Origin: Patescibacteria group bacterium
GTDB taxonomy: Bacteria > Patescibacteriota > Microgenomatia > Levybacterales > UBA12049
NCBI GenBank assembly: GCA_035510555.1
Contig: DATKGX010000048.1
Coordinates: 12,148-76,147, forward strand
DNA: 64,000 bases
Direction: 5' to 3'
Below are positions 6,307 through 61,085 of the stretch, in pieces. The position numbers and the translations under genes are program-made. The notes beneath the pieces are model-generated. The model did not search any database. It was not told the origin of the DNA and saw only the letters and a list, made by a program, of their open reading frames with translations. How positions within the stretch are numbered: position 1 is the first letter of the stretch; each line of letters begins with the position of its first letter.

Positions 6307-7976
6307 GTTCCAACTATTTTTATGGCTGGGCTACCATCTAGATTGTTAATTATCTTAATCGCTCCGACACCCTTAGGAATTTCTGCCGGACTACCGATTA
6401 TTAGAGTATTTTTTAGACGCGAATCTTGACTCCAATTAATCGGTCTGAATGTATATTTTCCGAAAGAATGGTGCGAAACAAAACTACCTGAACTATTTTC
6501 GCCTATTATTTGATACTGCTCCGGAGGATATTGAAGATAAAATAAAAAGAACATGTAAGATTTATCAAGCGGCGGGAAGTCGGAAATAATAATGGTTTGA
6601 TATTTGTTTCCTATCGCTTTCACTTCGCTAACTGCCTGTTGGTAGCCGTATTGCCACTGCTCTGAATTATAATAATTTTGTTGGACAAAATACTGGTTAA
6701 AATAGTAAGTGACGTTAAAAATAAAAGCCACGGCAAAAATTAGATAAAAAACGAATTTCGTTCTTTTGTACTTATTGAAAAAGATGAAAGCATATAAAAT
6801 ACCAATTGCCGAAAGAATTTGCCAAGTCGGTAGAAAATTCAAAGTTCTAACCGCGTGCGGCACTCCGGTTGTAATCGAAGCCGGTACCGGCGCCAGCAAT
6901 AACCAACCGAAGACGACCAGTTTTGTCTTTTTGTCAAAATCACCAAACAAAAGAGTATAAATACCAAACAAAATAAAAGGCAACTCGAAAAGATACATAA
7001 TGCCCATCCCTGGCGCATGATGTCTTGCGATGTCACCTGTAATGAAAAGCCAATTCGGATCAAAATGGGAAATGTATCCCGAAACAATCGTTGAAACATA
7101 AATAAATCTTCGGTTGTCTATAATTAAGCCGAGCTTATCGTTATTTAAACTATCCCGCTGTAATTTCTGAATATCGTTACTTAAAAGCTCTGTCTGATAG
7201 GAAAAAATACTCGTTCCCGTAACTCTTAATAAAGCCGCCCGGTTGGTTGTAATATAGAAAAGCATTGGAGTAACTATGATTAATCCAAAAATTACAACGG
7301 CGAACAGGTATTTTTTGGAGAGCGCGAATAATTTTTTCCAATAGATTATTGCCAATAAAAGTATAAATAATGGCGTAAAAACTTTTTCGCTTTGATAAAC
7401 ATAAATACTTAACCCCGCAAAAAGCGCCGCCACAAATAAATACCACCGCTTACTGTTTACTCCCTTGATTAGAAACAAGGCGGCCAAAAGATTTAAAATA
7501 TCCCCTACGTTTGCTTCGAAAGCAACTCTTGAGAATTGCAATGACCAGGGAGATATCGCCAACATAAAACTGGCGACTAAGGCTAATGGATCTTTATATT
7601 TAAAGTCCCGGAAAAGTTCTTGAACAAGATAGAAAACGGCAATAACCGAAATTATGCCAAAAAGCGCTGAAGGTAGCCTAACCGCAAAAATATTCAATCC
7701 CAACATAGCAACTGTCGGAATTGCCAGATAAGCGTATAAGGCCGGCTTGTAATCGTCGAATGAACGAAGCACCACTGGCAGAAACTTGCCGAATTCATCC
7801 CGCCCGGTGTGCATAATTGAGTAAGCATCGTATCCTAATGCGGCCTCGTCCCAATCCGGCGAAGGAGGAACGCTGCCCAGCTGCCAAAGCCTTAGTCCCG
7901 CGGCGAGAATTATAATAGCAATCAATAATATCCATACTTTTGAAAATTGAAAATTGAAAATTGAAAATTTTTTCAT
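6303..7976 (-). CDS. GT39 family (PMT-like) polyprenyl-phosphate-sugar-dependent membrane glycosyltransferase
   Basis: 557 aa. N-terminal loop-1 DE motif SPDWDEAALGYDAYS and multi-TM topology typical of PMT/GT39. 4-nt overlap with the upstream gene. Confidence 0.8.
   Translation of the reverse strand: MKKFSIFNFQFSKVWILLIAIIILAAGLRLWQLGSVPPSPDWDEAALGYDAYSIMHTGRDEFGKFLPVVLRSFDDYKPALYAYLAIPTVAMLGLNIFAVRLPSALFGIISVIAVFYLVQELFRDFKYKDPLALVASFMLAISPWSLQFSRVAFEANVGDILNLLAALFLIKGVNSKRWYLFVAALFAGLSIYVYQSEKVFTPLFILLLAIIYWKKLFALSKKYLFAVVIFGLIIVTPMLFYITTNRAALLRVTGTSIFSYQTELLSNDIQKLQRDSLNNDKLGLIIDNRRFIYVSTIVSGYISHFDPNWLFITGDIARHHAPGMGIMYLFELPFILFGIYTLLFGDFDKKTKLVVFGWLLLAPVPASITTGVPHAVRTLNFLPTWQILSAIGILYAFIFFNKYKRTKFVFYLIFAVAFIFNVTYYFNQYFVQQNYYNSEQWQYGYQQAVSEVKAIGNKYQTIIISDFPPLDKSYMFFLFYLQYPPEQYQIIGENSSGSFVSHHSFGKYTFRPINWSQDSRLKNTLIIGSPAEIPKGVGAIKIINNLDGSPAIKIVGT
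7942..7969. repeat. Heptanucleotide tandem repeat (GAAAATT)x4 inside the 5' coding end of the GT39 gene 6303..7976
   Basis: Four exact 7-nt units, located 5-32 nt downstream of the ATG (minus strand). Encodes FSIFNFQFS. Confidence 0.7.
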
Positions 7977-9601
7977 AATGTATAAGCCACTAGAACCGGC
8001 TGGCCATTTAATAAGTAAAACGTCTTTAGAACTTTTTTATTTTTAGGTAAATTATATGGCGTATTGATATAAAGCACTTTTTTACTTTTACTCAACGTAT
8101 AATTATAATTATCGGGAAAAAGATATTTACCAAACGCTTCGACTGTGACAAAACCGAAAGCATCCCTGTGGATTACCGCAGTCTTCCGATAATCCGCCGG
8201 CAAAGTCTGCGTATAAAAAAGATAGTAAATATATGGTCTTCCCAATTCGTTGGTAATTTGGATGTTGTCGTAATTTTTTTCTACCGATTGCACATAAGCA
8301 ATTGATTGCTGATACCCGTATTCCCACTCTCCGGAAAATTCTGCGGGGTAATGCGCAAAATAATCGTGGCAAAAATAAGCTAAATTTATTAACAGTAATC
8401 CGATTAAAACTACCGTGATTAGATTCTTAAAGCGTTTGACTAGCGATAAAAGCATTATAAATCCGTAAGCACTGATAATTTGAAACATTGGCAGAGACGC
8501 TTCAATCCTTAGTGCATGTGGCGTTTCTCGTGCCGTGGCAGCAGGAATAATGCCGATTAAAAGCCACAACGGCACCAACCACCAATTCCCTTCCCGCTTT
8601 TTTACCAAAAATAAGATTCCGATGACGACAAATGGAATATCCCAAATAAACATTTCTCCAACGCTTTGAATCGAAAACTTGGGGTTACCATCGCCTTTTA
8701 TGAATAAAAAGGTGGGACTTAAGTTGTCAAAATAATGTTTTACATATTCTATTGAATATAAAACCCTTCTGTTATGGATTAATTTTGACCACAAAGCATT
8801 ATGATCGTTGGCAATTTCCTGGTTGGCGACTTTAACCACGCCCGGATCCGAAAAGATATTTACTTCTTGAAATCTTAAGCCTGCTTGCGGGGTTAAAAGA
8901 AATCGGAAAGTGGGTAGAAAAACGACTAGTCCAACAATGCAGGCTATTAAGACTTCTTTTTTTATTTGGAATAATCTTTTCCTGAACAAAAGCGCAAGAA
9001 CGATTACTAAAAGCGGGGCGACTACCCTCGCTGTATTAAACGTGTACATGGAAACAGCGAAAGAAACGGCGGAAATTAAAAGGTACCATTTCTTTTCTTG
9101 AGTTGCTGCCAAAAATCCCCAAACGCCTAGGACTAAAAAGAAAGTCGCCACGTTAGCCTCAAAAGCGGCCCGTGACAGCATAATATGCCAAGGTGAAATC
9201 GCCAGAATAAAGGCCGAAGCAAGCGCGTATTTCTGCTTTTCTTTTGAATTCCAAAATATTCTCTTGACCAAAAAATAAGTCAACAAAACTGTCAGAACTC
9301 CAAACAAAGCGGATGGGACACGGGTTGAAAATTCATTTAAGCCTAACAACTTTACGGGAATAACATCTAAGTAAGCGTACATTGGCGGCTTAAAATCGCC
9401 GAATGATTCAAGATAATCGTGAGGCAAAAACCGGCCAAATTCATCTTTGCCGTCGATTCCGATTGAATACGCATTATAGCCCCAAGCCGACTCATCCCAA
9501 GTTAAGGAAGGCGGATTTGCTCCCAGTTGGTAAAACCGCAAAAATCCGGCTATTAATACTATTAAAAGCAATAGTAATTTGTAATTAATAAATTTAAGCA
9601 T
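7973..9601 (-). CDS. GT39 family (PMT-like) membrane glycosyltransferase
   Basis: 542 aa. SLTWDESAWGYNAYS DE-motif. Paralog of 6303..7976. Confidence 0.8.
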   Translation of the reverse strand: MLKFINYKLLLLLIVLIAGFLRFYQLGANPPSLTWDESAWGYNAYSIGIDGKDEFGRFLPHDYLESFGDFKPPMYAYLDVIPVKLLGLNEFSTRVPSALFGVLTVLLTYFLVKRIFWNSKEKQKYALASAFILAISPWHIMLSRAAFEANVATFFLVLGVWGFLAATQEKKWYLLISAVSFAVSMYTFNTARVVAPLLVIVLALLFRKRLFQIKKEVLIACIVGLVVFLPTFRFLLTPQAGLRFQEVNIFSDPGVVKVANQEIANDHNALWSKLIHNRRVLYSIEYVKHYFDNLSPTFLFIKGDGNPKFSIQSVGEMFIWDIPFVVIGILFLVKKREGNWWLVPLWLLIGIIPAATARETPHALRIEASLPMFQIISAYGFIMLLSLVKRFKNLITVVLIGLLLINLAYFCHDYFAHYPAEFSGEWEYGYQQSIAYVQSVEKNYDNIQITNELGRPYIYYLFYTQTLPADYRKTAVIHRDAFGFVTVEAFGKYLFPDNYNYTLSKSKKVLYINTPYNLPKNKKVLKTFYLLNGQPVLVAYTL

Positions 9602-45501: not shown

Positions 45502-45575
45502 GCCGCCATCGTCTAGTGGCCTAGGACGTCAGATTCTCATTCTGAAGATCGCGGGTTCAACTCCCGCTGGCGGTA
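45502..45575 (+). tRNA. tRNA-Glu (anticodon CUC), 74 nt, CCA not encoded
   Basis: Hand fold. Acceptor GCCGCCA/TGGCGGT (G1-U72), D-stem GTCT/GGAC, anticodon stem TCAGA/TCTGA with loop TTCTCAT (C34 T35 C36), 5-nt variable loop, T-arm GCGGG-TTCAACT-CCCGC and discriminator A. Confidence 0.8.
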
Positions 45576-47089
45576 CTCAGTGAGAGCCCCTTATTGTCAA
45601 ACATTCGAATAGATTGATATATCGGGCTAATCTCGGTGTTGTAGCACCCCGGATACCCCCAAACCAGCCCAGAGGGAAATATTGAACACAGTAGGACTCG
45701 AATCTGGCTTAAGTTTGACATCTGATAAGTCGTTCCTAAATTGGCAAACTTTTCTTTCATAAATTTTACGATTGATTCAAGATTATATTTTGCCAACAAT
45801 GCATCATCTTTTGAAATTTGAATTGCCCTAACTTGGTCTTCAATTAACTTATTTTGCTCTTTAAATATTTCATCAGAAAAGACACCGGTTAAATTTTTCT
45901 GAATAAGTGATTGTCGAAGTTCAAATAACCTTTTTAATTCCTTATCCGCTTCATCTCGTCGTTTCTGAAGTTGTCCTACTCGTTGATAATAAGTTCTTCT
46001 TAAAAGAGCTATAAAGGCGTCTAGTCCTTCTCTTGTTGGAGTTATGCTTGATAAATACTGTATTGTTTCAGTTTGTACTTTATCAACGGAAATGGAAGGT
46101 GATTGACAACCCTTTTGACATCTATAATAAGCGTATCGGGCAAGCTTACCCTTACTCCATCCACCTGTTACCGGTTTCTTGCAAACTCCACAGATTAAAA
46201 TTCTTCTTAATGGAAATTCTTTATTGTCCATATTTCTTCTTGCAATGGGTACGTTGATATTAGTATTTCTTCCATCAATTGCCGCCTGAACCCTATAGAA
46301 AACCGCTTCCGATACCATCGGCAAATGTTGGCCTTTAATTCTTTCGGGATATTTGTCAGAAGATAATAATCCAATGTAATAACAACTTCTAAACATTCTA
46401 CTTAATGTTTGCGGTCTAATAATGTGTTCTTTACCCTTGTATCGATGTACTACTCCCCAACTATTTAAAAGGTTTGCCATTTCTCGCAAGGTTTTTGTTC
46501 CTGTCGCCATAAGTTCCCATGCCTTTTTTACTTTTTCCCAAGCCTCCGGATCTTTTACCGTATATCCGTTTTCATTTTTATAACCAAGCGGGGCGACTCC
46601 ACTTTTGAGACCCGTCAGAAATCTTGCCCGTAATCCGTTTTTTGTTCGTTCGCTTCTTACGTCATTATCCATTTGGGCAAAACTGGCAAGCATTGTTTCC
46701 ACGAATTTCTCAGTAGGGCTATTGCCTGTTGGTTCGGAAGCAGAAATAAGAGATATTTCGCACTCGACAAGTTTTCTTCTTATCGCTAGATAATCCGAAG
46801 TCTGTCTTGAAAGTCTATCTAATCTATAAATAATGAGCGCGTCAATATTTCGCTTATTCTTTTTGCAAAAATCCAACATCTCAATTAGAACCGGCCTCCC
46901 AGATATGGTTTTTGCAGAACGTCCTTCTTCCCTAAAAATCTTAATTATCCCCATCCATCTTCTTTCGGCTTCTTGTTTACATAGCTTCTCCTGTGTCCCC
47001 AAAGAAAAATTATCAACTTGCTCCTCCGTAGAAACTCGCAAATACATTATTGCCTGTTTTTGTCCAAAATTGTTTGTTATTGATTCCAT
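45557..47089 (-). CDS. Large serine recombinase (resolvase/invertase catalytic domain + recombinase domain + zinc ribbon), the island integrase
   Basis: 510 aa. N-terminal YLRVSTEEQ (catalytic Ser), ...IYRLDRLSR and zinc ribbon CGVCKKPVTGGW...YYRCQKGC. The last 9 codons lie inside the att core and the tRNA 3' end. Confidence 0.85.
   Translation of the reverse strand: MESITNNFGQKQAIMYLRVSTEEQVDNFSLGTQEKLCKQEAERRWMGIIKIFREEGRSAKTISGRPVLIEMLDFCKKNKRNIDALIIYRLDRLSRQTSDYLAIRRKLVECEISLISASEPTGNSPTEKFVETMLASFAQMDNDVRSERTKNGLRARFLTGLKSGVAPLGYKNENGYTVKDPEAWEKVKKAWELMATGTKTLREMANLLNSWGVVHRYKGKEHIIRPQTLSRMFRSCYYIGLLSSDKYPERIKGQHLPMVSEAVFYRVQAAIDGRNTNINVPIARRNMDNKEFPLRRILICGVCKKPVTGGWSKGKLARYAYYRCQKGCQSPSISVDKVQTETIQYLSSITPTREGLDAFIALLRRTYYQRVGQLQKRRDEADKELKRLFELRQSLIQKNLTGVFSDEIFKEQNKLIEDQVRAIQISKDDALLAKYNLESIVKFMKEKFANLGTTYQMSNLSQIRVLLCSIFPSGLVWGYPGCYNTEISPIYQSIRMFDNKGLSLSTASGS
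45567..45585. repeat. attL core: 19-bp direct repeat CTGGCGGTACTCAGTGAGA (covers the last 9 nt of the tRNA plus 10 nt downstream)
   Basis: Identical 19-mer at 60065-60083. Confidence 0.75.
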
Positions 47090-48164: not shown

Positions 48165-50987
48165 ATGAATAATAGTGACTATCAGCAGGAGCTAGCATTA
48201 ATTCATCAGTTACAAACTCATACGTTTTCCGTAGGGCATGCCTATCTCCTCATTCTCTTTGGTCTTCCATTACCAATTCACTTAAAACTTGCTATCTACC
48301 ATTTCCTTACATCTCTACCGCTTCCGCAACTGTCTCCTATGCAAACAACCGTCCTCATCCTGGTCGGCCCAATCCTTTTCCTTGTATTCATGTATTTCTT
48401 TGTTAAGCTCGTAATTACTATCGTAAGAACGCTTATCCCTTTTGTTTTAACTAGATTTAAGAAGACAAAAGAAGAGAAGATATTCTTAGAGTTAACGTTC
48501 CCTTCAGATACAAGTAAGTCTGCGTATGCCACGGAGCAACTATATAAAACGATGCATACGGTAGCCGGAAGAAACAAAGGCTTTTTTTCTGTCAGGAAAA
48601 CATTTTCTTTGGAAATTGTCTCAAGCCGAAATGACGGAATTAGATATATCATTGGTGTTCCACCAGCTGATGCAGATGTTATGCGTCGAACCTTGATATC
48701 ATATCTTCCCGGTCTTTCTATCCGAGAAATTCCGGATTATCTACAAAGCATGCTGGTTGTTGAAGAAAATGAAGATGCTAAGCAAGCAACAGAGAAATCA
48801 CTTGGTTTTGTACAATTTACTCTCTCCGATGACTTTGTCTTACCTTTAGAGAACCAAAAGGTGCTCGGAAAACACGATTCCATCGCATTTCTAGCCGGCA
48901 ACATGACTAAGCTTGAAAAAGGAGAGCTTGTCGCTTTCCAGATTGTCACAAGCCCTACGGTAAGTAGCAAAGTGAGGGAACACATGCTGCGTGCGAAAAA
49001 CGCTATCTATCAAGGAAAGCCATTATCTCCGGTTTTGTTTAAAAAAAGTGCTTTACCGCTTCCCCCTGCCCTCATCCTTATCCTAGGCCCTGTTGTTTGG
49101 CTTACGGTTTCGTTTGTAAAACTTTTACTTGCCATGCCTCACCTGATCCTTGATCCTAAGGGGCCACACGCAAAATATTTTTTTGATTCAAGTTCAAAAA
49201 GTCAGCTGCAAGCTATTCTTAATCCTTATGAAATGGAACTTTCAACGGTTGTCAAAGGAAAACTCTCAGAACAGTTGTTTGAAACATCAATCAGGCTACT
49301 TATTATGACAAATACCGAGGAAGAATCTGATGCCAGACAAACCGGCCTTGTCTCCTCATTTAGTCAATTTACAAGCCAGTACCAATCATTAGTACAACAA
49401 GAAATGACTCCACTCCCATTTTTAGCTAATCAAATATTTAAGAAACGCTTCACAGATTTTCAAAAGCGTAATCTATCCAATGACAACTTAATCCTTTCTT
49501 CATCTGAAATTTCCGACCTATACCATTTCCCTAATATGGATATTACAAAAATTGAGGGGCTGGTTAAAAGTAAGAGCAGTGAGCTACCAGCACCCAGGTC
49601 CATAAAAAGAGATGATGGCGATCTTGATGTCATTGTCGGTAAGAATACCTATGGAGGAGAGGAAACAGCAGTTGGGCTAAGAAAGAGGGATCGATATCAA
49701 CATACATACATCGTCGGTAAAACGGGTATGGGAAAATCTACCATTATCGAGGGGATGGCATTACAGGATATTCAAAGCGGAAAAGGGATCTGTGTTATTG
49801 ATCCGCATGGAGACATGGTTGAGCATTTATTAACCTTAATTCCCAAAGATAGACAAAAGGATGTTGTCTTTGTTAATCCATTTGATAAAGAGTTTCCTAC
49901 AGGGCTTAATATTTTAAATCCCGGTACAAATTACGAAGATCTTGAAGAAGAACACCGAAGAATTGCCCAAACTGTGATGTCAATATTTATGAAAATAACG
50001 CCGGAAAGACATTGGGGCCAACGTATGGAACATATTTTAAGAAATGCGATTCTGACAACTCTCCTAATACAAGCAGGCACTACGAATACACCCTACATTT
50101 CCCTTTATACAATCCAAAAGCTTTTAACAGATGATAAGTATCGAAAATCTGTTACGGGAACTCTTTCCGATCCTATTTTAAAGCAGTTCTGGGAAAAAGA
50201 ATTTATGTTGTTTAGAAAAGGTCAGCAGGGGGATATGGTTGCGCCCTTAACAAATAAAATCGGAGAATTTATTACCGATCCACTCTCGCGATTCATATTA
50301 CTGCAGAAAAATAGCACCATCAATATTTCAGAAATTATGGATAATAGTAAAATCTTGCTTGTTAACCTTTCTAAGGGAAATTTAGGAGAGGAAAGAAGCG
50401 CCTTTTTTGGAACAATAATTACCTCTCTTATTCAACTTGCTACCTATCAAAGAGCACAGACTGAGGAAAAGAAAAGGCGTGATTTTTTCGTTTACATTGA
50501 TGAATTTCAAAACTTTGCAACGCCTCATTTTACCGAGCTGTTTTCAGAAGCCAGAAAATATCATGTATATTTTACCCCTTCTCACCAAAACATTGCCCAG
50601 ATTGATGATCCAAAAGTGTCAAAAGTAATTAAAGGCAATAGCGGAAACTTCATTGCTCTTAAAGGAAGCTCTGATGATGAAGAGGCTATGCTACCCATTT
50701 TCTCCCCGGAAGTAGAGAAAGGACAAATCGTCAATCTTGCTCCTTTTCATTTCTTTATGAAAGTAACCAATGATGAAAGTGAAGACGCCTTTACCGGTGT
50801 TACAATACCGGTTGAAAGTAGCGGAAGTAAAGAAACAAAGGAGGGTATTATTAAACAATCAAGACTGCATTACGCAACCAAACGGGAAGATGTTGAAAAG
50901 CAATTAGAACAGCTACTTAAAGTCGCTCCAAAGGTTCAAAAACAAGTGCTTAAAAATACAAGGATTAAAAAGAAACGATTAGCATAA
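48165..50987 (+). CDS. Membrane-anchored P-loop ATPase of the FtsK/HerA/TraD-VirD4 superfamily, a candidate conjugative coupling protein
   Basis: 940 aa. N-terminal about 100 aa with 2-3 TM helices. Walker A GKTGMGKST followed by VIDPHGDM. Walker B FFVYIDEFQNF. Confidence 0.5.
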   Translation: MNNSDYQQELALIHQLQTHTFSVGHAYLLILFGLPLPIHLKLAIYHFLTSLPLPQLSPMQTTVLILVGPILFLVFMYFFVKLVITIVRTLIPFVLTRFKKTKEEKIFLELTFPSDTSKSAYATEQLYKTMHTVAGRNKGFFSVRKTFSLEIVSSRNDGIRYIIGVPPADADVMRRTLISYLPGLSIREIPDYLQSMLVVEENEDAKQATEKSLGFVQFTLSDDFVLPLENQKVLGKHDSIAFLAGNMTKLEKGELVAFQIVTSPTVSSKVREHMLRAKNAIYQGKPLSPVLFKKSALPLPPALILILGPVVWLTVSFVKLLLAMPHLILDPKGPHAKYFFDSSSKSQLQAILNPYEMELSTVVKGKLSEQLFETSIRLLIMTNTEEESDARQTGLVSSFSQFTSQYQSLVQQEMTPLPFLANQIFKKRFTDFQKRNLSNDNLILSSSEISDLYHFPNMDITKIEGLVKSKSSELPAPRSIKRDDGDLDVIVGKNTYGGEETAVGLRKRDRYQHTYIVGKTGMGKSTIIEGMALQDIQSGKGICVIDPHGDMVEHLLTLIPKDRQKDVVFVNPFDKEFPTGLNILNPGTNYEDLEEEHRRIAQTVMSIFMKITPERHWGQRMEHILRNAILTTLLIQAGTTNTPYISLYTIQKLLTDDKYRKSVTGTLSDPILKQFWEKEFMLFRKGQQGDMVAPLTNKIGEFITDPLSRFILLQKNSTINISEIMDNSKILLVNLSKGNLGEERSAFFGTIITSLIQLATYQRAQTEEKKRRDFFVYIDEFQNFATPHFTELFSEARKYHVYFTPSHQNIAQIDDPKVSKVIKGNSGNFIALKGSSDDEEAMLPIFSPEVEKGQIVNLAPFHFFMKVTNDESEDAFTGVTIPVESSGSKETKEGIIKQSRLHYATKREDVEKQLEQLLKVAPKVQKQVLKNTRIKKKRLA

Positions 50988-51015: not shown

Positions 51016-51127
51016 AGGCAATTTGAGCATAAATTAAAGATAAATTGTGACACCTACCCTTACCAAATACGGAGTATATTATACGGTTGGGTATGGCATA
51101 AATACTAAACTTACAAAAAATAACTTA

Positions 51128-51922
51128 ATGACACAACTAAACCTAACAAACAAACAACAAGAAATATTAACACTAATCCCTAGATTTAGATTCTTAGACA
51201 GAACCCATATCCAAACATTCTTAAAACATAAAGACAAGAAACGAATCAACAGCTGGTTAAAAAACTTAACAGAAAAAGAATACATACAAAGAATATATGA
51301 CAATCATATTGTGGGAAAGAATAGAAGAGCTGCTATCTTTTCTTTAAATAACAACGGAGTAAGATTTGTAAAAGCTTTAGGAATATATGACAGATCTTTT
51401 ATTCATAAACTGTATTGGGACAAAGACAGGTCTGATGCGTTTATTGAGCGCTGTCTATTTATTGCCACAATCTGTTGTGAGCTTGAAAAGAAAGAAAGCA
51501 ATATGCTGCATTACGAATACGCAACTGAAAGCGATTTCTGTGATCCAACTAACCCCTTTCATTTTTTAAAAGTTTCTAAATTACCAATCGATTTATACTT
51601 TAAAAAAAGAAAGGGAAGATTAACAAAGCATTTTCTACTGACATTATTTGAGCAAACTCTTCCGCGTTACAGACTACGAAAAAGGATTAGGGATTATCTA
51701 GAATTTTACTATAGTAATGACTGGAAGAATCTTACAAATACTAAATTTCCCACGCTATTATTTGTGTTTCAAACAAAAGAGCGCATGATTTATGCAAAGA
51801 GGTATATCAAAACGCTGTTTGATGATGATAGCCCTGATGATTTATCAATCAATCTCGCGGTAGCTAGCGACGTACAAACCGAAGGTGGCGTTACTGGAGA
51901 GATTTGGGAAGAGGTTGAATAA
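51128..51922 (+). CDS. Replication-relaxation (Replic_Relax, PF13814-like) family protein candidate
   Basis: ORF track starts at 51047. MTQLNLTNKQQEILTLIPRFRFLDRTHIQTFL matches the winged-helix N-terminus of replication-relaxation proteins from Gram-positive plasmids/ICEs. Confidence 0.45.
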   Translation: MTQLNLTNKQQEILTLIPRFRFLDRTHIQTFLKHKDKKRINSWLKNLTEKEYIQRIYDNHIVGKNRRAAIFSLNNNGVRFVKALGIYDRSFIHKLYWDKDRSDAFIERCLFIATICCELEKKESNMLHYEYATESDFCDPTNPFHFLKVSKLPIDLYFKKRKGRLTKHFLLTLFEQTLPRYRLRKRIRDYLEFYYSNDWKNLTNTKFPTLLFVFQTKERMIYAKRYIKTLFDDDSPDDLSINLAVASDVQTEGGVTGEIWEEVE

Positions 51923-51963: not shown

Positions 51964-52272
51964 CTACTCTTGTGGTTCGTGTAGCTTTTTAATTTCTGAA
52001 AGCCTGATAGGCTTAAAATACATGTCCCTTTCAATACTTAAATCCATCGGACCCTTAAGGTTTTGCAGTTCGGAAAGACTAAAATATCCTAACTCTGGAT
52101 AGTCTCCTGCTACGTAACCGAAAAAAGAATCTTTTCCGTCAAATTCTATGCCGTACCATTTCCAGCTTGTCCAAACAGCAAAGAATTTACAAACAACCAT
52201 CGGATCTTTCTCGTTTTCTTGAGAATAGAGTGCCGGCAATGCTTTTCTTAGTTCTTCTGTTATTAGTTTCAT
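51964..52272 (-). CDS. DUF2958-like protein (small protein common on conjugative plasmids)
   Basis: 102 aa. ...ALPALYSQENEKDPMVVCKFF...WKWYGIEFDG...FGYV.G...ELGYFSLSEL. Has a strong SD (AGAGGGGGTGA) 5 nt upstream, unlike its neighbours. Confidence 0.45.
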   Translation of the reverse strand: MKLITEELRKALPALYSQENEKDPMVVCKFFAVWTSWKWYGIEFDGKDSFFGYVAGDYPELGYFSLSELQNLKGPMDLSIERDMYFKPIRLSEIKKLHEPQE

Positions 52273-52304
52273 ATTTCACCCCCTCTCTTTTTAGAATTTG
52301 TTTT

Positions 52305-52400
52305 TAGGAAGCAAACCTGCTTCCTATACCAGAGACGAAATATGCGGGGTGAAGATTACAAGAGCGAAGCAAAGACTTCGTTTATATACTCTTGTAATCT
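52305..52400. repeat. Cluster of inverted repeats: a candidate oriT or structured RNA
   Basis: IR1 TAGGAAGCA-aacc-TGCTTCCTA (52305-52326). IR2 has a 12-bp stem AGATTACAAGAG (52353-52364) / CTCTTGTAATCT (52389-52400) enclosing the nested hairpin CGAAG-caaaga-CTTCG (52365-52380). Confidence 0.4.
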
Positions 52401-52436
52401 GAGGGGTGCAACCCTTAGAAACACTAAATGTAAAAC

Positions 52437-52466
52437 TTGAAACTAAATTTATTGTTAAACTATAAT
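52437..52466 (+). promoter_or_regulatory. Promoter TTGAAA-N18-TATAAT, 6 nt upstream of the kinase ATG (leaderless)
   Basis: TATAAT at 52461-52466, then gagtaa, then ATG at 52473. Confidence 0.5.
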
Positions 52467-52472
52467 GAGTAA

Positions 52473-52982
52473 ATGAATAAACCAATATTATATATTTTAA
52501 GCGGTATGTCTTTTGCTGGAAAATCAGTATTAGCGAGAGAAATTGCTAAAACAAAATCTATTCCATATATTGATCCCGATGAGGTTTCTCGAGAAAGAGG
52601 ACTTGGACTAAATGGTGAATTTATTCCAGAAGAGATTTGGAAAGACATACATAAGGAAGCGGAACAGAGAGCCATAGAAATTTTAAAACAAGGAAAAAGT
52701 TTGGTTTATGATACAACTGCATTAATTAAAAAGGATCGTGATTATTTAAGAAATTTAGCTAATGAAAATGGAGCTGAACCATTAGTTATAATTGTAAACA
52801 TTTCTAGAGAAGACGCTTTTAAGAGATGGCAGGAAAATAATACAACCAATGAAAGATATGCAGTTCATATTAATGATTTTAATATGTGCGCTGATGGTTT
52901 TCAATTTCCCAAAGATGACGAGAAATTCATAGTCTATCAAGCTGGTCAAAATATTACTGAATGGCTAAGGAAAATAAATTAA
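52473..52982 (+). CDS. Small P-loop kinase, chloramphenicol-phosphotransferase-like (CPT/AAA_33 family)
   Basis: 169 aa. P-loop ILSGMSFAGKSVL resembles the CPT P-loop ILNGGSSAGKS. Leaderless. Confidence 0.45.
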   Translation: MNKPILYILSGMSFAGKSVLAREIAKTKSIPYIDPDEVSRERGLGLNGEFIPEEIWKDIHKEAEQRAIEILKQGKSLVYDTTALIKKDRDYLRNLANENGAEPLVIIVNISREDAFKRWQENNTTNERYAVHINDFNMCADGFQFPKDDEKFIVYQAGQNITEWLRKIN

Positions 52983-53081
52983 ATCTACGAAGCGGAAACC
53001 ATTGCGCCCTTCAGAAGAAGTAGTACTTGATCAATCGTGAAAGTACCAAAAGAGGGGCAAGACCCCTAAGAAGCTTTCTGA

Positions 53082-53087
53082 TATAAT
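53082..53087 (+). promoter_or_regulatory. Extended -10 (cTGaTATAAT), 6 nt upstream of ATG 53094 (leaderless)
   Basis: ctgatataat-caactc-ATG. Same arrangement before the other cassettes. Confidence 0.5.
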
Positions 53088-53093
53088 CAACTC

Positions 53094-53807
53094 ATGGAAG
53101 AAGAAATAAAAATCCCCCTTGGAGATAATAAGTTTGCTTATGGCACTCTAAGAGGAAACCTTGATCAACCCCTTATAATATTTGCTCACGGATTTACAGG
53201 AGATAAGAATCATCACATTTTTTTCAATGGTGCTAGGTTTTTTGAGAAACATGGAATTTCTTCATTTAGATTTAATTTCTATGGCGAGGAAGAAGATTCT
53301 AGGCAGTTAAATGATTGTAGCATCTCAAATCATGTCTCCGACTTAGATACAATAGTGTCATATTTTAGAGATAAAGCCAAAAACATTATTGTTGTTGGAC
53401 ATAGTTTTAGCGGAATAATAATACTTTCATCAAAAAAACAGCAGTTTGATAAAGCTATACTTTGGGATCCATCTTCTGATACTAAGAGCTGGTTAGTTAA
53501 AGACGCTAAATATATAAAAGAGCTTGGTCTATATTATTTCGATGACTGGGGAGTGTCATATACAATTGGAAAGCAGATGTATCAGGAATGCGTCGATTTT
53601 AACCCCGATCACCTATCCTCAAAATTTACAAAACCACTCAAAATAATTGTCGCAGGCAATGGAATACTTAAAGACGGTGGCCGAAAATATTTTGAACAAG
53701 CAAATCAGCCTAAAGAATTTGCTGTTATTGAGGGTGCGAGCCACAACTTTAATGAAGATGGGGTGGAAGAAAAGTTATTTCAAGAAACCCTTAATTGGAT
53801 AAAATAA
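53094..53807 (+). CDS. Alpha/beta hydrolase fold protein
   Basis: 237 aa. HGFTGDKNHH followed by the nucleophile elbow VVGHSFSG. Confidence 0.7.
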   Translation: MEEEIKIPLGDNKFAYGTLRGNLDQPLIIFAHGFTGDKNHHIFFNGARFFEKHGISSFRFNFYGEEEDSRQLNDCSISNHVSDLDTIVSYFRDKAKNIIVVGHSFSGIIILSSKKQQFDKAILWDPSSDTKSWLVKDAKYIKELGLYYFDDWGVSYTIGKQMYQECVDFNPDHLSSKFTKPLKIIVAGNGILKDGGRKYFEQANQPKEFAVIEGASHNFNEDGVEEKLFQETLNWIK

Positions 53808-53848
53808 GTTCTAATATCGTCTATCCCTCGGAGCAAATTAGCCTCAAA
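53808..53848 (+). repeat. Cassette-junction element J1 (GTTCTAATATCGTCTATCCCTCGGAGCAAATTAGCCTCAAA)
   Basis: Begins 1 nt after the stop codon. Related copies at 54534-54577, 55105-55121 (partial), 56001-56040 and 56573-56620. TAGCCTCAAAA alone occurs at 57142-57152. Confidence 0.6.
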
Positions 53849-53893
53849 TAGCGTACATTTTACCTGCCCATACTCTACTCAACCATTATCCTA

Positions 53894-53908
53894 TTGACAA
53901 TTTGTCAA
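53894..53908. promoter_or_regulatory. Perfect palindrome TTGACAA-T-TTGTCAA overlapping the -35 hexamer of the 53939 gene (candidate operator)
   Basis: 7-1-7 inverted repeat. TTGACA-N17-GATACT promoter, then about 10 nt to the ATG. Confidence 0.45.
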
Positions 53909-53938
53909 TGATTAAGGATACTATAGACAGAGAAAAAT

Positions 53939-54532
53939 ATGACAGAACCAATAGACGCATCAAGGGGAGTTCCTGCTCCAGTAGAACCAACGGGTGAACA
54001 ACCTCAAATTCCTCAAGAGGATAGATATATATTTAATCCAGCAGAGTTTGACGAAAAAGCCGCAGCTGAGCTAAGAAGACATGAGGAATGGCTTAGGACT
54101 GAGGGCTGGAGAGAAGACAGAGCCAGGGAAACTCTTGATAGACAAAGACAAGATTTGGCTGAGAATAGAACTTGGTGTGAGGCTTATTCTGGGAAAGTGA
54201 AAAGAGAATGGGGCTGGGGGGAAGTGAATGAAAATGCTGGCTACCCATCTTGGGCTCACATAATTACAGATATTGAAGACCAAGGAGTACCTCTAACAGC
54301 TGTGGAGATTGATGCTGCTATAGACTATCCGCTATGGCATGTACCTGTATCTCTCGGAGAAAACAGGCCACTAACTCAAGAGCAACTAGACAGGTTAGCA
54401 ACTAAAAAGAACATGGTACGAGCAAAAACTTTTGAAAAAGACATTGCAGATGCCCAGTTGCGTATGGGTGTAGAACCTCAAGTGGTACAGCACGCTGTAG
54501 GTTTAAATCAAGCTGCTGGCCGAGTTGTATAA
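53939..54532 (+). CDS. Hypothetical protein (197 aa), acidic and Arg/Glu-rich
   Basis: GC-richer codon usage than its neighbours. No motif recognised. Confidence 0.55.
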   Translation: MTEPIDASRGVPAPVEPTGEQPQIPQEDRYIFNPAEFDEKAAAELRRHEEWLRTEGWREDRARETLDRQRQDLAENRTWCEAYSGKVKREWGWGEVNENAGYPSWAHIITDIEDQGVPLTAVEIDAAIDYPLWHVPVSLGENRPLTQEQLDRLATKKNMVRAKTFEKDIADAQLRMGVEPQVVQHAVGLNQAAGRVV

Positions 54533-54533
54533 C

Positions 54534-54577
54534 TAGCCTCTAACATCCTCTATCCCTCGGAGTTACGTAGCCTCAAT
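54534..54577 (+). repeat. Cassette-junction element J2
   Basis: ctagccTCTAACATCCTCTATCCCTCGGAGttacgTAGCCTCAatt, followed by tgTGaTATAAT at 54583-54588. Confidence 0.55.
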
Positions 54578-54582
54578 TGTGA

Positions 54583-54588
54583 TATAAT
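54583..54588 (+). promoter_or_regulatory. Extended -10, 9 nt upstream of ATG 54598
   Basis: tgtgatataat-cccctaaat-ATG. Confidence 0.45.
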
Positions 54589-54597
54589 CCCCTAAAT

Positions 54598-55116
54598 ATG
54601 CCAGAAGGAGATAATTCACAAAGACAAGAAGTAGCAAGAAATGCAGAATTCGCCGGAATAATGGCAGAGGCGATAAAAAGACATGTTCAATATCCAGATA
54701 AATCAGCAACTGAACATGAATATCTGCTAGGATCTCTCGAAATTCCTGTAACTTTTTACTATCAAGGTGCTTCAAGATGTGCAATAAAAATAGACTGGAA
54801 TGACGATTGGGATGTAACTTATCACGTTGATCCTGAAGGTGTAATTAAAACAGGCTTTATTGACCCAAGAGAAACAACCGGTGACCCTTGCACATTCTGG
54901 GAAAATGATCCAGCGGAAATTGAAGACCACAAGCGTTTTGGGCGTAGATTTCTTCCTGCGCCTGCTGCCAATTCAATAGAGAAAAGTTTAATTAGTCAAT
55001 TAGCACAACATCCAATGCAAGGACAAAAAATCCTGTTGGATATTGCGGAGCATGCAGCGTGGAAAAATTATGAGATATGCCCCCAATTCCTCTCTGAACC
55101 AGAGGGAGCAAATTAG
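54598..55116 (+). CDS. Hypothetical protein (172 aa)
   Basis: Leaderless ORF. Its 3' end contains the GGAGCAAATTAGCCTCA junction core. Confidence 0.55.
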   Translation: MPEGDNSQRQEVARNAEFAGIMAEAIKRHVQYPDKSATEHEYLLGSLEIPVTFYYQGASRCAIKIDWNDDWDVTYHVDPEGVIKTGFIDPRETTGDPCTFWENDPAEIEDHKRFGRRFLPAPAANSIEKSLISQLAQHPMQGQKILLDIAEHAAWKNYEICPQFLSEPEGAN

Positions 55117-55136
55117 CCTCAGAAAGCAGCTTCTGC

Positions 55137-55142
55137 TATAAT
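55137..55142 (+). promoter_or_regulatory. Extended -10 (cTGcTATAAT), 7 nt upstream of ATG 55150
   Basis: TAGCCT lies 17 nt upstream at the -35 position. Confidence 0.45.
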
Positions 55143-55149
55143 CAGTCCA

Positions 55150-55590
55150 ATGACTTATTCAACTCACAAATTAAAACAAGAAGATCTTAGTAGTTTTGTT
55201 GATTTATGGAATCAAGATCCTGAAGCTTTAGCAACAAGTAAACGTGTGATGACATTAGATTTAGCACAAGATGGGTTTAAAGAGAATTATTTTGATTACT
55301 ATTTTGGTCTGTACGAAAATAATAAACTAATTGGCTTTATTCTTATAAAGAATATCGATGATAATATTTGGTTAAAACATATGTTAATTGATAATGGCGA
55401 AAGAGGGAAAGGGCTTGGAAAAATGTTTTTATCGGAAGTTCTCAAAATTGTTAACAATAGAATATTAACGGAAGTTGTTGAGGACAATGATAGGGCAAAA
55501 AAGTTTTATATAGATAATGGTTTTAGGGAAATTCGTTTTGATCAAGAAAGTAGGGATTATATTTTGGAATATATCCCATCACTGATATAA
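55150..55590 (+). CDS. GNAT family N-acetyltransferase
   Basis: 146 aa. Motif A ...IDNGERGKGLGKMFLSEVL. Confidence 0.75.
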   Translation: MTYSTHKLKQEDLSSFVDLWNQDPEALATSKRVMTLDLAQDGFKENYFDYYFGLYENNKLIGFILIKNIDDNIWLKHMLIDNGERGKGLGKMFLSEVLKIVNNRILTEVVEDNDRAKKFYIDNGFREIRFDQESRDYILEYIPSLI

Positions 55591-55591
55591 T
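55586..55591 (+). promoter_or_regulatory. Extended -10 (cTGaTATAAT) inside the 3' end of the GNAT gene, 6 nt upstream of ATG 55598
   Basis: ctgatataat-caactt-ATG. Confidence 0.45.
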
Positions 55592-55597
55592 CAACTT

Positions 55598-55999
55598 ATG
55601 AATAAAAAAGTATTAGAAATGTTTGCCAAAAGCACATTTAGCGTCTCTGAACAGAAATACATTTACGCAAAAGTTAAAAGTGTACCTACGTTATCTATTC
55701 ATTTTTTTGTTTCTCAAGACAAGGATGAAATAACTGTAGTAACTGAAGAGAATAACATTTCCTCCTTAGATTTAATCGAAAAGAATGATAATCTCTGGAG
55801 ATTAGTATCTCTTAATTTAGAAACGTCTTTTATGGCAGGGACATTAGCGATAATTAATTCTGCTTGTGCAGAAAAAGGATTGAATAACTTAATTATTTCA
55901 ACTTATTCGAAGGACTACTTAATCATAAAAGATTTACAAGCAAATCAAATAAGAGAAGTTTTGACCACTCTTGGATTTAATGAAAAATCCCTAAAATAG
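55598..55999 (+). CDS. ACT-domain-like small protein (ACT_7-like)
   Basis: 133 aa. ...KYIYAKVKSVP...FFVSQDKDEITVVTEE...STYSKDYLIIK pattern. Confidence 0.45.
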   Translation: MNKKVLEMFAKSTFSVSEQKYIYAKVKSVPTLSIHFFVSQDKDEITVVTEENNISSLDLIEKNDNLWRLVSLNLETSFMAGTLAIINSACAEKGLNNLIISTYSKDYLIIKDLQANQIREVLTTLGFNEKSLK

Positions 56000-56000
56000 A

Positions 56001-56040
56001 TTCTAATGTCCTCTATTCATCGGAGCTGCATAGTCTCAAA
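56001..56040 (+). repeat. Cassette-junction element J5 (TTCTAATGTCCTCTATTCATCGGAGCTGCATAGTCTCAAA)
   Basis: Starts 1 nt after the stop. Followed by cTGaTATAAT at 56051-56056 and ATG at 56063. Confidence 0.6.
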
Positions 56041-56050
56041 ATATTTCTGA

Positions 56051-56056
56051 TATAAT
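56051..56056 (+). promoter_or_regulatory. Extended -10, 6 nt upstream of ATG 56063
   Basis: ctgatataat-ctacct-ATG. Confidence 0.45.
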
Positions 56057-56062
56057 CTACCT

Positions 56063-56569
56063 ATGGAAATTGTTGATGTTGTTGATAAAGATTTAAACAT
56101 CCTATGCCAAATTTCAAAACAAGAAGCCCACGAAAAAGGATTACTGCATAAATGTGTTATTGCTGAGGTTACCAACTCCAAAGGCGAAATGATGCTTATT
56201 AAACCATATAGTCATAAGCAAGATGCCGGACAATATGTTTCGCCTGTTGGGGGACATGTATCTGCAGGAGAATCAGACGAAGATGCCTTGAAAAGAGAAG
56301 TTATGGAAGAAATTGGAATGAAAGATTTTACATACAAGCTCAAGGGAAAAGGAATTTTTAACAGATTCGTTCTTAATCGTCATGAGAATCACTATTTCCT
56401 TCTGTATGAAATATTTACAGACGAAGCTCCTCAGCTAGGAGACGAAGCTGAAACATATAAGTGGTTTACTAAAGAAGAGCTAAAAAAAGAATTAAAGGAA
56501 AATACTAAGGATTTTGGTGACGCATATATCTTTATTCTTAACAATTTTTACCCTGAATTATTAAAATAG
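56063..56569 (+). CDS. NUDIX hydrolase
   Basis: 168 aa. Nudix box GGHVSAGESDEDALKREVMEEIGM (GX5EX7REUXEEXGU). Confidence 0.8.
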   Translation: MEIVDVVDKDLNILCQISKQEAHEKGLLHKCVIAEVTNSKGEMMLIKPYSHKQDAGQYVSPVGGHVSAGESDEDALKREVMEEIGMKDFTYKLKGKGIFNRFVLNRHENHYFLLYEIFTDEAPQLGDEAETYKWFTKEELKKELKENTKDFGDAYIFILNNFYPELLK

Positions 56570-56572
56570 CAA

Positions 56573-56620
56573 GTTCTAATGTCCTCTATTCTTCGGAGCT
56601 CAATATTTTATCCTCAAAAA
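56573..56620 (+). repeat. Cassette-junction element J6 (GTTCTAATGTCCTCTATTCTTCGGAGCTC...ATCCTCAAAAA)
   Basis: Followed by tgTGaTATAAT at 56629-56634. The ORF-track start at 56579 is the ATG embedded in this repeat. Confidence 0.6.
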
Positions 56621-56641
56621 CCTTGTGATATAATCGAATTT

Positions 56642-57124
56642 ATGAATGAGAGATTTACTCCTCAAGAGCTTTATGATTTTATAGATAGAGCAGGCAAGGC
56701 AACCTATGCAGGAGGTGGAAAATATGAAGAGCATCCAGAGCGACCTGGATTTTTTGAATTAGTCTACGATAAAGAATTGCCTTGGTATTACAGGGATAGC
56801 TATGCAGGACATTCTAGGTCTGGAGGACAAGAGGTTGTTAGATTGAATGATGAATTAATTTGGTGGTCAGGATATGGTGGAGGCATGGTTGAAGGAAGAG
56901 AAGACATGTCCAATCAAACTTTTGATTTTCTTAAGAAGGCTCTATCCCAAGACGATGAAGGATTTAAATCTCTAAGAGGTCCTCATGAATTTGCGGATGG
57001 AGATTGGAAATATGCCTATACCCAAGATGGAGATATAACAGATTTTTATGGATATGAAGAGATTTCCTACAAAGGAGAAAAAGTGTTCTGGCACAGAGCG
57101 GTTGGCGGAATATTAAAGAAATAA
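56642..57124 (+). CDS. Hypothetical protein (about 160 aa)
   Basis: The start is re-placed at MNERFTPQ (56642), 7 nt downstream of the TATAAT. The 21-codon extension from 56579 lies inside the conserved junction repeat. Confidence 0.55.
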   Translation: MNERFTPQELYDFIDRAGKATYAGGGKYEEHPERPGFFELVYDKELPWYYRDSYAGHSRSGGQEVVRLNDELIWWSGYGGGMVEGREDMSNQTFDFLKKALSQDDEGFKSLRGPHEFADGDWKYAYTQDGDITDFYGYEEISYKGEKVFWHRAVGGILKK

Positions 57125-57168
57125 CGCCCATCCCACGAAAATAGCCTCAAAAACTAACTGCATAAAAA

Positions 57169-59898: not shown

Positions 59899-59930
59899 AA
59901 TAACTGTTAAAGTTCTTTCCCTTTAGTTAA

Positions 59931-60083
59931 TTTTTCTAGTATAATATGCTTCGGAGTAACCAGTGTCTTTTGATAAAAATATATCGTTTTCAGCTTCCTT
60001 TTGCCCTTGATACGAAAGCACAATTTTCTGTATCCAAGGCAGGAAGTGTTCAAAAGAAAATGCACTGGCGGTACTCAGTGAGA
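59931..60083. repeat. About 145-bp right-arm repeat, copy A (ends in the att core)
   Basis: About 75% identical to 60941-61085. The last roughly 45 bp (TATCCAAGGCAGGAAGTGTTCAAAAGAAAATGCACTGGCGGTAC) are near-identical. Confidence 0.6.
60065..60083. repeat. attR core: second copy of the 19-bp direct repeat CTGGCGGTACTCAGTGAGA
   Basis: Exact match to 45567-45585. Confidence 0.75.
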
Positions 60084-60318: not shown

Positions 60319-60570
60319 TTATTCATAGACTGTTGCTCTATGTCCCGCAGTAAGAATGTCTACTACTTTATCTTTTTTATTAACCTTATAAATTATTCTA
60401 TACACACCTACTCGAAAAGAAAATTTGCCTGTAAGTTCCATGGTTAAGGGCTTACCTAAAAAAGGTTCTTCTTTTATTTCCGCGAATGCCAAAATGATTG
60501 CTTTTTGATGAGGATGTGATATTTTTTTAATTTCGCTTTCTGCTCTTGAAGAAATTCGTAATTTATACAT
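60319..60570 (-). CDS. Type II toxin, RelE/ParE family
   Basis: 83 aa. C-terminal ...YRIIYKVNKKDKVVDILTAGHRATVYE. 8-nt overlap with the upstream antitoxin gene. Confidence 0.75.
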   Translation of the reverse strand: MYKLRISSRAESEIKKISHPHQKAIILAFAEIKEEPFLGKPLTMELTGKFSFRVGVYRIIYKVNKKDKVVDILTAGHRATVYE

Positions 60571-60838
60571 GAAGATTTAACTCTTTTTTGAGTTGTTCAA
60601 ATGTTACAAACCGATCATTTTTTATATCATCTTCTCCTTCTCTAATTGCATACAATAATCCTGAATCAGCCATAATTTCATTCGTTTCTTTCCAAGACTG
60701 GTATTCGGCAGCAGAAATAAGAACTGCTGCAGGTAATCCGTTTACAGTAATAATATATTCTTCTAGTTTCTTATTTGCATTTTCAACCAGAGTAGTTAAA
60801 TCTTCTCTTGCTTTTGTGATAGGTAATGTGTGTGTCAT
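60563..60838 (-). CDS. Type II antitoxin, Phd/YefM family
   Basis: 91 aa. ...PITKAREDLTTLVE...ITVNGLPAAVLISAAEYQSWKETNEI. Promoter TTGACA-N17-TAATAT with 6 nt to the ATG. Confidence 0.75.
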   Translation of the reverse strand: MTHTLPITKAREDLTTLVENANKKLEEYIITVNGLPAAVLISAAEYQSWKETNEIMADSGLLYAIREGEDDIKNDRFVTFEQLKKELNLHV

Positions 60839-60940
60839 AAGTAAATATTACAGAATTATGTACAAATTGTCAATAGCTAAAAAAATGTTTAATGCGTAGG
60901 ACTTGAGTTGTGCAACAAAAATCTATCAGTTTATTTTCTT

Positions 60941-61085
60941 GGTATAATAAGTTTCGGAGTACTTAATATTTTCTGGCGAAAATATATCATTTTTAATATT
61001 CCTTTGCTCTTGATATGAAATTATGATTTTATATATCCAAGGCAGAAAGTGTTCAAAAGAAAATGCACTAGCGGTACAAAGTCCC
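60941..61085. repeat. About 145-bp right-arm repeat, copy B (ends in the degenerate att-like CACTAGCGGTACAAAGTCCC)
   Basis: See copy A. Begins with TGgTATAAT like copy A. Confidence 0.55.

Follow-up and report, generated by a model that had tools for sequence, protein, structure and literature searches.

Eight small genes occupy positions 52473–57124 on the plus strand of a 64-kb stretch of DNA (hereafter the window, meaning the whole of the sequence analyzed; 37% GC) from a metagenome-assembled genome (MAG) labelled "Patescibacteria group bacterium," and a short conserved sequence recurs at junctions between them. This junction repeat is real and widespread, and no description of the element was found in the literature on integrons or attC sites in Patescibacteria, on cassettes in Microgenomates, or on the core sequence. 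Our preferred interpretation, in which confidence and doubt are about equal, is that of a lineage-specific, strand-polar junction element delimiting slots for cassettes, each made of a promoter plus an open reading frame (ORF). Such an architecture would be integron-like without being built on attC sites or the integrase IntI. The anatomy of the element, its polarity, the presence/absence and replacement polymorphisms at its sites, and the limits of the exchanged segment are all directly visible in the sequences compared below.

The initial annotation treated the motif as a property of this one array, but looking for its consensus in related sequences uncovers at least 137 copies in Patescibacteria contigs. 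Pattern scans returned 9 genome loci and 60 metagenome loci, the genome matches being mostly Levyibacteriota or Patescibacteria MAGs, and a profile search defined 137 non-redundant cores in 62 Patescibacteria (Microgenomates/Levybacteria-type) loci totalling 374 kb (related loci compared with the window are labelled L followed by a number). In the window itself, the profile finds four full copies in 64 kb, all inside the array, where a pattern search expects 0.00 full-copy matches by chance. The core is 34 nucleotides (nt) long (consensus AAAAYAGGTTCTAACRTCSTCTATYCNTCGGAGC), with conservation from −9 to +24 relative to TCTAAC, and has stops in more than one reading frame. In about 60% of copies, a spacer of ~3–45 nt (3 nt being commonest) separates it from a right box (TTAGCCTCAAAA); this box is co-oriented with the core (74:6) and often runs into TTGACA or TGnTATAAT. 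Copies range from near-consensus to decayed (8 to 51 bits), and a profile made from them picks up many diverged copies that make up arrays within these loci (for instance L063, L031, L023, L011/L025, L046, and L081). A CCATCGG variant, a possible sign of co-evolution, is common to all cores of L031, L046, and L051. The cargo of the arrays is very diverse, including GNAT, NUDIX, cupin, and SET proteins, toxin–antitoxin (TA) modules, kinases, and hydrolases, and the largest cluster among the 503 ORFs has five members. Some cores lie beside housekeeping genes (PGK, GAPDH, alaS, rpoD). No match was found in IMG/VR viral contigs, PLSDB plasmids, or INPHARED phages. Two arrays are on contigs labelled "uncultured Gammaproteobacteria" (L002, CAZKJM010000001.1; L004, CAYWVK010000002.1); both are at 33% GC and bear complete arrays of the Patescibacteria repeat, which makes mislabelling probable. 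An archaeal pattern match (L003/L060) was set aside as it looks like a chance match in apparent coding sequence of higher GC.

Two further kinds of repeat touch this element. Composite sites at L031 (11170–11285), L020, and L029 combine a complete core with a bidirectional terminator hairpin and an inverted, shortened core copy, and the whole folds very stably (z −7.8). A second junction repeat of ~120 nt, also present as several co-oriented copies per locus, occurs at 859–974, 2274–2381, and 4292–4413 of L030 and in L025, L033, L011, L009, L006, L032, L040, L059, and L065 (alignment A1), with no Rfam match. It contains GTTATAAT and ends in CTGGGGAGCAAATTAGCCTCAAAATTGAC, and hence has its right part in common with the main motif.

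The polarity of the cores is strict. None of 114 cores within multi-copy loci is reversed, although 28 of the 132 genes between cores (21%) are on the other strand and 12 of 75 intervals hold reversed genes only (L011, L055, L044, and L081 provide examples). The copies are thus unlike a plain 3′-untranslated-region element, which would flip with its gene. They also do not behave as DNA uptake sequences, which occur at high, roughly even density in both orientations: here, copies are clustered, with one orientation per locus.

This polarity bears directly on the best-surviving alternative, that the core is purely a 3′-end or insulator element, read by a host factor (an RNA-binding protein, a Rho-like terminator, or a DNA roadblock) to end leaderless units, and that the cassette differences described below are ordinary rearrangements aided by homologous recombination between dispersed repeats. 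We consider this possible but somewhat unlikely. It would explain why most cores overlap the upstream stop or come after it, why array genes have no intrinsic terminators between them, and why the core sequence is unstructured; it also agrees with the way diverged genomes keep cores at the 3′ ends of their PGK and geneA orthologues and with the lineage-specific core variants. Natural competence, also in keeping with this view, has been demonstrated in Patescibacteria (Saccharibacteria; PMC10187176). However, not one of the 114 cores takes the strand of reversed genes, and in the 12 reversed-only intervals the core sits upstream of the gene's promoter. For eight cores, a canonical terminator comes next, and the identity of recently moved units stops at boxes of 12–16 nt, which is too short for RecA-type exchange.

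Comparison of equivalent sites reveals which segments come and go. At the geneA–core–alaS site, L038 contains a single core without any cassette, in L044 two identical cores of 38 nt enclose a reversed Phd/RelE operon, and L040 has a gene for a 62-residue protein. At a second site, PGK–core–[X–core]–GAPDH, X is a 126-residue gene in L005 and a 337-residue gene in L068, each closed by a core. Loci L016 and L064 share 97% identity as far as the GGAGC that ends the core and are unrelated beyond it. The 62-residue gene belongs to a widespread Microgenomates family, and its exact protein (P0002) occurs in three unrelated contexts, one of them an integrative and conjugative element (ICE)-like element related to that of the window. 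Across five contexts of this cassette, the ORFs share 95%–100% identity and the segments between right box and ATG 77%–100%, whereas the value is only 50%–82% for the following core and 53%–84% for the 45 nt ahead of the right box (the preceding core plus spacer). L081 and L029 are 100% identical from right box to stop codon. Because identity is high inside and low in the flanking cores, the exchanged unit extends from the right box to the stop codon, and the core belongs to the slot. Target-site duplication was rejected as a general signature, since adjacent cores are not clearly more alike, even if L044 and L042 do have identical flanking copies. These observations make good evidence for what appear to be exchangeable cassettes, and all of it comes from related loci, not from the window array.

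The motif is an addition of one sub-lineage, because it is absent from the genome piece L086 and from L077, though homologous genes are present in both. In L086, a homologue of the window NUDIX gene adjoins the dcw cluster on the chromosome (same 90%-identity protein cluster, ~88% DNA identity). This copy has the same promoter and no motif, and the next promoter overlaps its stop codon. Equally tight packing is seen in the window at 55583–55600, where, as in L086 at ~8505–8530, the −10 element of the next gene overlaps the previous stop (TAA within TGATATAAT).

A second alternative is a selfish miniature repeat of 34–50 nt that spreads to stop-codon/promoter junctions while the genes stay passive, in the manner of repetitive extragenic palindromes (REPs) and the bacterial interspersed mosaic elements (BIMEs) that they form, or of miniature inverted-repeat transposable elements. 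Near-consensus copies alongside decayed ones, the related lineages without the element, the mosaic junctions (including the ~120-nt repeat with its common right part), and the composite inverted pairs around a terminator in L031 and L020 would all be natural products of such spread. Like the REPs and BIMEs of enterobacteria and pseudomonads, the junction elements are short, conserved, lineage-specific extragenic sequences just past stop codons that form mosaics with other motifs and are able to promote rearrangements. REPs, however, are palindromic, can face either way, frequently come as inverted pairs, and are tied to REP-associated tyrosine transposases (RAYTs). The junction element has no palindrome and no terminal inverted repeats, no RAYT or other transposase was seen with it, and its orientation is strictly uniform within each locus. 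In addition, identical genes occupy different slots, which means that it is genes that move. On balance we regard a selfish repeat as quite improbable.

The initial annotation had called the motif not attC-like, and the structural evidence agrees: there is no fold, no significant inverted partner, and no covariation. Folded as RNA or as bottom-strand single-stranded DNA, the four window junctions and the consensus do no better than shuffles (z −0.3 to +1.4), and Smith-Waterman searches for an inverted partner give z < 2 for most copies. The covariation analysis that had been proposed found none inside the core (maximum mutual information 0.21, none Watson-Crick-like) and none between left and right boxes (C18 is mostly opposite A, and left AGG and right CCT are uncorrelated). 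On the lack of covariation we rejected a hairpin between the two boxes and, together with the lack of fold stability, RNA structure in general. The core has no dyad symmetry or palindrome, and Rfam searches gave nothing at the window junctions at E ≤ 10 and nothing at E ≤ 0.1 in six related loci. The element is not an intrinsic terminator. We infer that it is read as linear sequence.

Several other identities were considered for the core. Its variable positions fall on every third base (hidden Markov model columns 10, 19, 22, 25, 28, and 31; 110 aligned copies; for example, at 53806–53835), in the frame TAG GTT CTA ACN TCN TCY ATY CCN CGG AGC, which reads (stop/Q)-V-L-T-S-S-I-P-R-S. A translated extension of the upstream gene was rejected because the stop codons of upstream genes occur in each of the three frames with respect to the core. 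A −35 or UP element of the next promoter was ruled out by variable spacing: the distance from core to next start ranges from ~20 to more than 200 nt, and some cores are followed by an intrinsic terminator or a reversed gene, so that the general UP-like promoter element raised as a caveat in the initial annotation does not describe it. A tRNA-derived or att-like fragment was likewise dismissed, the "ACCCCGAG...GAACC" pieces after some cores being shortened inverted core copies.

Complete integrons have the tyrosine recombinase IntI, an attI site, and a Pc promoter beside an array of promoterless cassettes, and the attC sites of these arrays are imperfect inverted repeats (R″–L″ ... L′–R′) that fold to a hairpin in single-stranded DNA and move with the upstream cassette. 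The junction elements share with attC arrays the single orientation of all sites, and neither the hairpin and site co-transfer of attC nor the IntI and promoterless cassettes of a complete integron are found. A true integron array without integrase (a cluster of attC sites lacking integron-integrases, or CALIN), with the motif as a short attC, is thus very improbable indeed, in spite of sites that all point one way, cassettes that are small and diverse, TA cassettes that are reversed and bring promoters of their own, the resemblance of TTCTAAC to the inverse core RYYYAAC (6/7) and of RTTAGCC to GTTRRRY (5–6/7), a moved unit that starts at TTAGCC, and an inverted partner at a few sites (L016, L004, L019, L031): there is no hairpin (z about 0 as bottom-strand DNA), the inverted arm is missing in most copies, the two boxes do not covary and are only ~37 nt apart, the site does not travel with its cassette (62-residue ORF 95%–100%, following core 50%–82%), cassettes have their own promoters, and there is no IntI in 374 kb.

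As a known architecture, sedentary chromosomal integrons and CALINs nevertheless offer a close likeness, with long arrays of small diverse genes (GNAT, NUDIX, TA modules) separated by a species-specific repeat in single orientation, some reversed cassettes with their own promoter, and arrays on both chromosomes and mobile elements. They differ in that the repeat here is a linear 34 nt with no hairpin, stays with the slot, and is accompanied by no IntI, and in that every cassette has its own, mostly leaderless, promoter. Tandem arrays of ICEs and cis-mobilizable elements, which grow by accretion between att sites, are alike in that successive insertions at a hot spot are bracketed by direct repeats of a single attachment sequence and units without their own recombinase could be moved in trans. 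Here, in contrast, the units are single genes of 0.3–1.5 kb, a genome region has dozens of sites, no integrase has been assigned, and the sites have no att-type dyad symmetry.

How the slots would operate can be sketched as follows. The element lies between independently transcribed, mostly leaderless genes and would mark slots, its right box leading into the next promoter; the moving unit would be the right box, the promoter, and the ORF or ORFs, while the core stays with the slot. Such units may be inserted, deleted, and exchanged at junctions, both on chromosomes and in the cargo of integrative and conjugative elements, as the recurrence of the same 34–50 nt in one orientation at many junctions suggests. 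Exchange would take place by recombination at the box sequences, and the agent might be an enzyme that acts in trans on specific sequences, or else short-homology recombination involving DNA that these naturally competent bacteria take up. The core itself could be kept because a host factor reads it as linear sequence; the likeliest purpose would be to terminate or insulate one unit ahead of the leaderless promoter that follows. With no recurrent recombinase and no dyad symmetry, the core would best be seen as a linear boundary element read by a lineage-specific factor. A bolder version, which we think unlikely, is an undescribed gene-capture system in which a trans-acting, sequence-specific recombination activity recognizes the linear 34-nt site and the boxes rather than a hairpin, and both inserts and swaps promoter-plus-ORF cassettes at polar slots. 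The system would then be an independently evolved functional analogue of integrons, on chromosomes and conjugative elements, and the tolerated changes with a period of three might reflect how the recombination factor reads the site.

Several points weigh against the interpretation of the element as a delimiter of exchangeable cassettes. No recurrent recombinase is found near the arrays among the top 25 Pfam families of 147 neighboring proteins, and a crude test for the HxLRH tyrosine-recombinase box found none in ~500 ORFs. The core has neither the dyad symmetry nor the hairpin that most site-specific recombinases use. About 80% of cores lie directly after a same-strand stop, which fits a plain 3′-end element, and in eight related loci cores are followed by a separate canonical intrinsic terminator. 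Cores flanking one cassette are 86.3% alike, compared to 84.6% for random pairs. The period-3 pattern is an odd feature for an intergenic element. The sample comes from a pattern search, which biases it to well-conserved copies, and the census covers 62 loci of contig sequence. Finally, the idea that cassette order or content varies between strains does not hold for the window array in the places compared: among 21 contigs with the exact NUDIX protein, the same eight genes appear in the same order in all six places listed. An array that is the same in every one of the six gives no indication of activity.

The array consists of eight plus-strand units. The first (52460–52982) has TATAAT without TG at 52460–52465, 7 nt before an AAA_33 kinase-like gene (52473–52982), and the second (53079–53807) has TGATATAAT at 53079–53087, 6 nt before an alpha/beta hydrolase gene (53094–53807). 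Unit 3 (53896–54532) differs, with TTGACA, a 17-nt spacer, TACTAT, and a 14-nt leader before a hypothetical gene of no family (53939–54532); it is the sole leadered gene of the array. The same TGATATAAT precedes four of the remaining genes: a second hypothetical gene of no family (54598–55116; unit 54580–55116) at 9 nt, a 133-residue gene with a weak ACT_7 match (55598–55999; unit 55583–55999) at 6 nt, a NUDIX gene (56063–56569; unit 56048–56569) at 6 nt, and a DUF5680 gene (56642–57124; unit 56626–57124) at 7 nt. The true start of the last is 56642 and not the in-frame upstream ATG at 56579. Between the hypothetical and the 133-residue genes is unit 5 (55134–55590), where TGCTATAAT stands 7 nt before a GNAT gene (55150–55590) whose stop is overlapped by the promoter of unit 6. 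NCBIfam and PADLOC searches with the array proteins gave only sub-threshold superfamily matches, and no intrinsic terminator (GC-rich hairpin then U tract) was found on the plus strand between the array genes.

Seven consecutive genes were originally described as starting 6–9 nt after TGnTATAAT. Seven genes do follow TATAAT at this distance; only six of them (genes 2, 4, 5, 6, 7, and 8) have the TG, and the seven are not strictly consecutive because gene 3, with its different promoter and leader, interrupts them. That no Shine-Dalgarno sequence precedes any array gene was correct. The junction count changes in a similar way. The conserved element reported at five junctions is real, and it is present as four full plus two degenerate copies, with no motif at the junctions of genes 1 and 2 and of genes 5 and 6, the latter being where the next promoter overlaps the GNAT stop. 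The first full copy (53799–53848) has its core at 53799–53835, overlapping the gene 2 stop, and its right box TAGCCTCAAA at 53839–53848. In the second (54530–54577) the core is at 54530–54562 and the right box begins at 54568; the left box of this copy reads TAGCCTCTAAC, with a right-box-like 5′ half. The third (55992–56040) has its core at 55992–56027 and right box TAGTCTCAAA at 56031–56040, and the fourth (56564–56619) has its core at 56564–56600 and right box TATCCTCAAAA at 56609–56619. One degenerate copy, GGGAGCAAATTAGCCTCAG (55103–55123), lacks the core's 5′ half and is similar to the "GGGGAGC" type of junction in related loci; its TAG is the gene 4 stop, and it is the form that had been recognized inside the end of the preceding ORF (54598–55116). 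The other, CATCCCACGAAAATAGCCTCAAAAAC (57125–57152), follows gene 8 and is made of the 3′ part of the core plus the right box. All six are on the plus strand. As first described, the window cores stay close to the upstream stop, overlapping it or beginning a few nt past it.

The promoters are another matter. A promoter of its own 6–9 nt from the ATG, without a Shine-Dalgarno sequence, was originally seen as a special trait of the cassettes; it is instead the normal gene start of the lineage. The same −10 spacing is found elsewhere in the window at operon-first genes (47656 and 59674, plus strand; 38183 and 57529, minus strand) and at a tRNA-Glu gene, where the 8 nt between the end of the −10 element and the mature 5′ end provide an internal calibration of the promoter-to-start distance. 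TATAAT-N6–9-ATG occurs 17 times in the window, compared to 5.7 ± 2.2 times in shuffles (0 of 100 shuffles reached 17), and Shine-Dalgarno sequences are nearly absent from the window genes. In the related loci, a TATAAT-like hexamer lies 5–10 nt upstream of 109 of 328 ATG-start ORFs and 9 of 328 control positions, with Shine-Dalgarno-like sequences at background (37 versus 27 in the control). Leaderless genes with an extended −10 are known in Actinobacteria and Deinococcus (the "group C" genomes of GeneMarkS-2). At the level of sequence the array genes are of this type, having TGnTATAAT 6–9 nt before the ATG and no Shine-Dalgarno sequence, as have about one-third of this lineage's genes. The comparison accounts for the promoters here, not for the junction repeat; as far as promoters go, the array is nothing unusual in its lineage.

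The array sits in the cargo region of an integrative and conjugative element. The edge of the element is marked by the tRNA-Glu(CUC) gene (45502–45576, plus strand), with TGATATAAT ending 8 nt upstream. Next to it is a large serine recombinase (45557–47089, minus strand; Pfam Resolvase, Recombinase, and Zn_ribbon_recom), the sole recombinase found in the window and probably the element's integrase. Its ORF, as listed, overlaps the tRNA 3′ end by 20 nt (45557–45576), which suggests that the element inserted at or beside the tRNA-Glu gene. In keeping with the original statement that no IntI is present, no Phage_integrase match occurs among the Pfam families of the window proteins or among the top 25 families of the 147 neighboring proteins. 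The element continues with a type IV coupling protein (48165–50987, plus strand; TrwB_AAD_bind, TraG-D_C), a weak match to the replication-relaxation family (51047–51922, plus strand), homologues of which in L049 and L043 are likewise on motif-bearing contigs, and a DUF2958 protein (51964–52272, minus strand) that is 56% identical to its counterpart in L008/L049 and directly after which the array begins. In the related ICE-like element of L008, a DUF3800-IX RNA (7023–7094, minus strand; Rfam RF02968, 63 bits) adjoins the DUF2958 gene; the equivalent region of the window (52273–52472) has hairpins and no Rfam match. Downstream (3′) of the array are SnoaL, DUF3800, an XRE regulator, and a ParE/Phd pair. 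The pair (60319–60838, minus strand) is flanked by 155-nt direct repeats, 77% identical, at 59925–60079 and 60928–61082, each encoding a paralogous small ORF on the minus strand, and a right-box-like TTTTTAGCCTCGGG lies near these repeats at ~60100. The first 45 kb of the window is a single huge glycosylation cluster (324–45405, minus strand) of ~34 co-directional genes, including nine PMT_2, seven GT2, four PTPS_related, and three YfhO proteins plus Wzx-like flippases and HlyD proteins, with stop-to-start overlaps between many neighbors.

Patescibacteria have tiny genomes, and little is known of how they acquire accessory genes. Here, a polar junction sequence appears to mark hot spots for the swapping of single promoter-bearing genes, both in the cargo of conjugative elements and between housekeeping genes. 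The 34-nt core is an easy search handle with which metagenomes can be mined for accessory cassettes, and motif-bearing lineages can be compared with motif-free ones to find the factor that reads it. If our interpretation is right, it would provide a concrete, testable route of gene flow in the Patescibacteria radiation and a second cassette-array architecture besides integrons.

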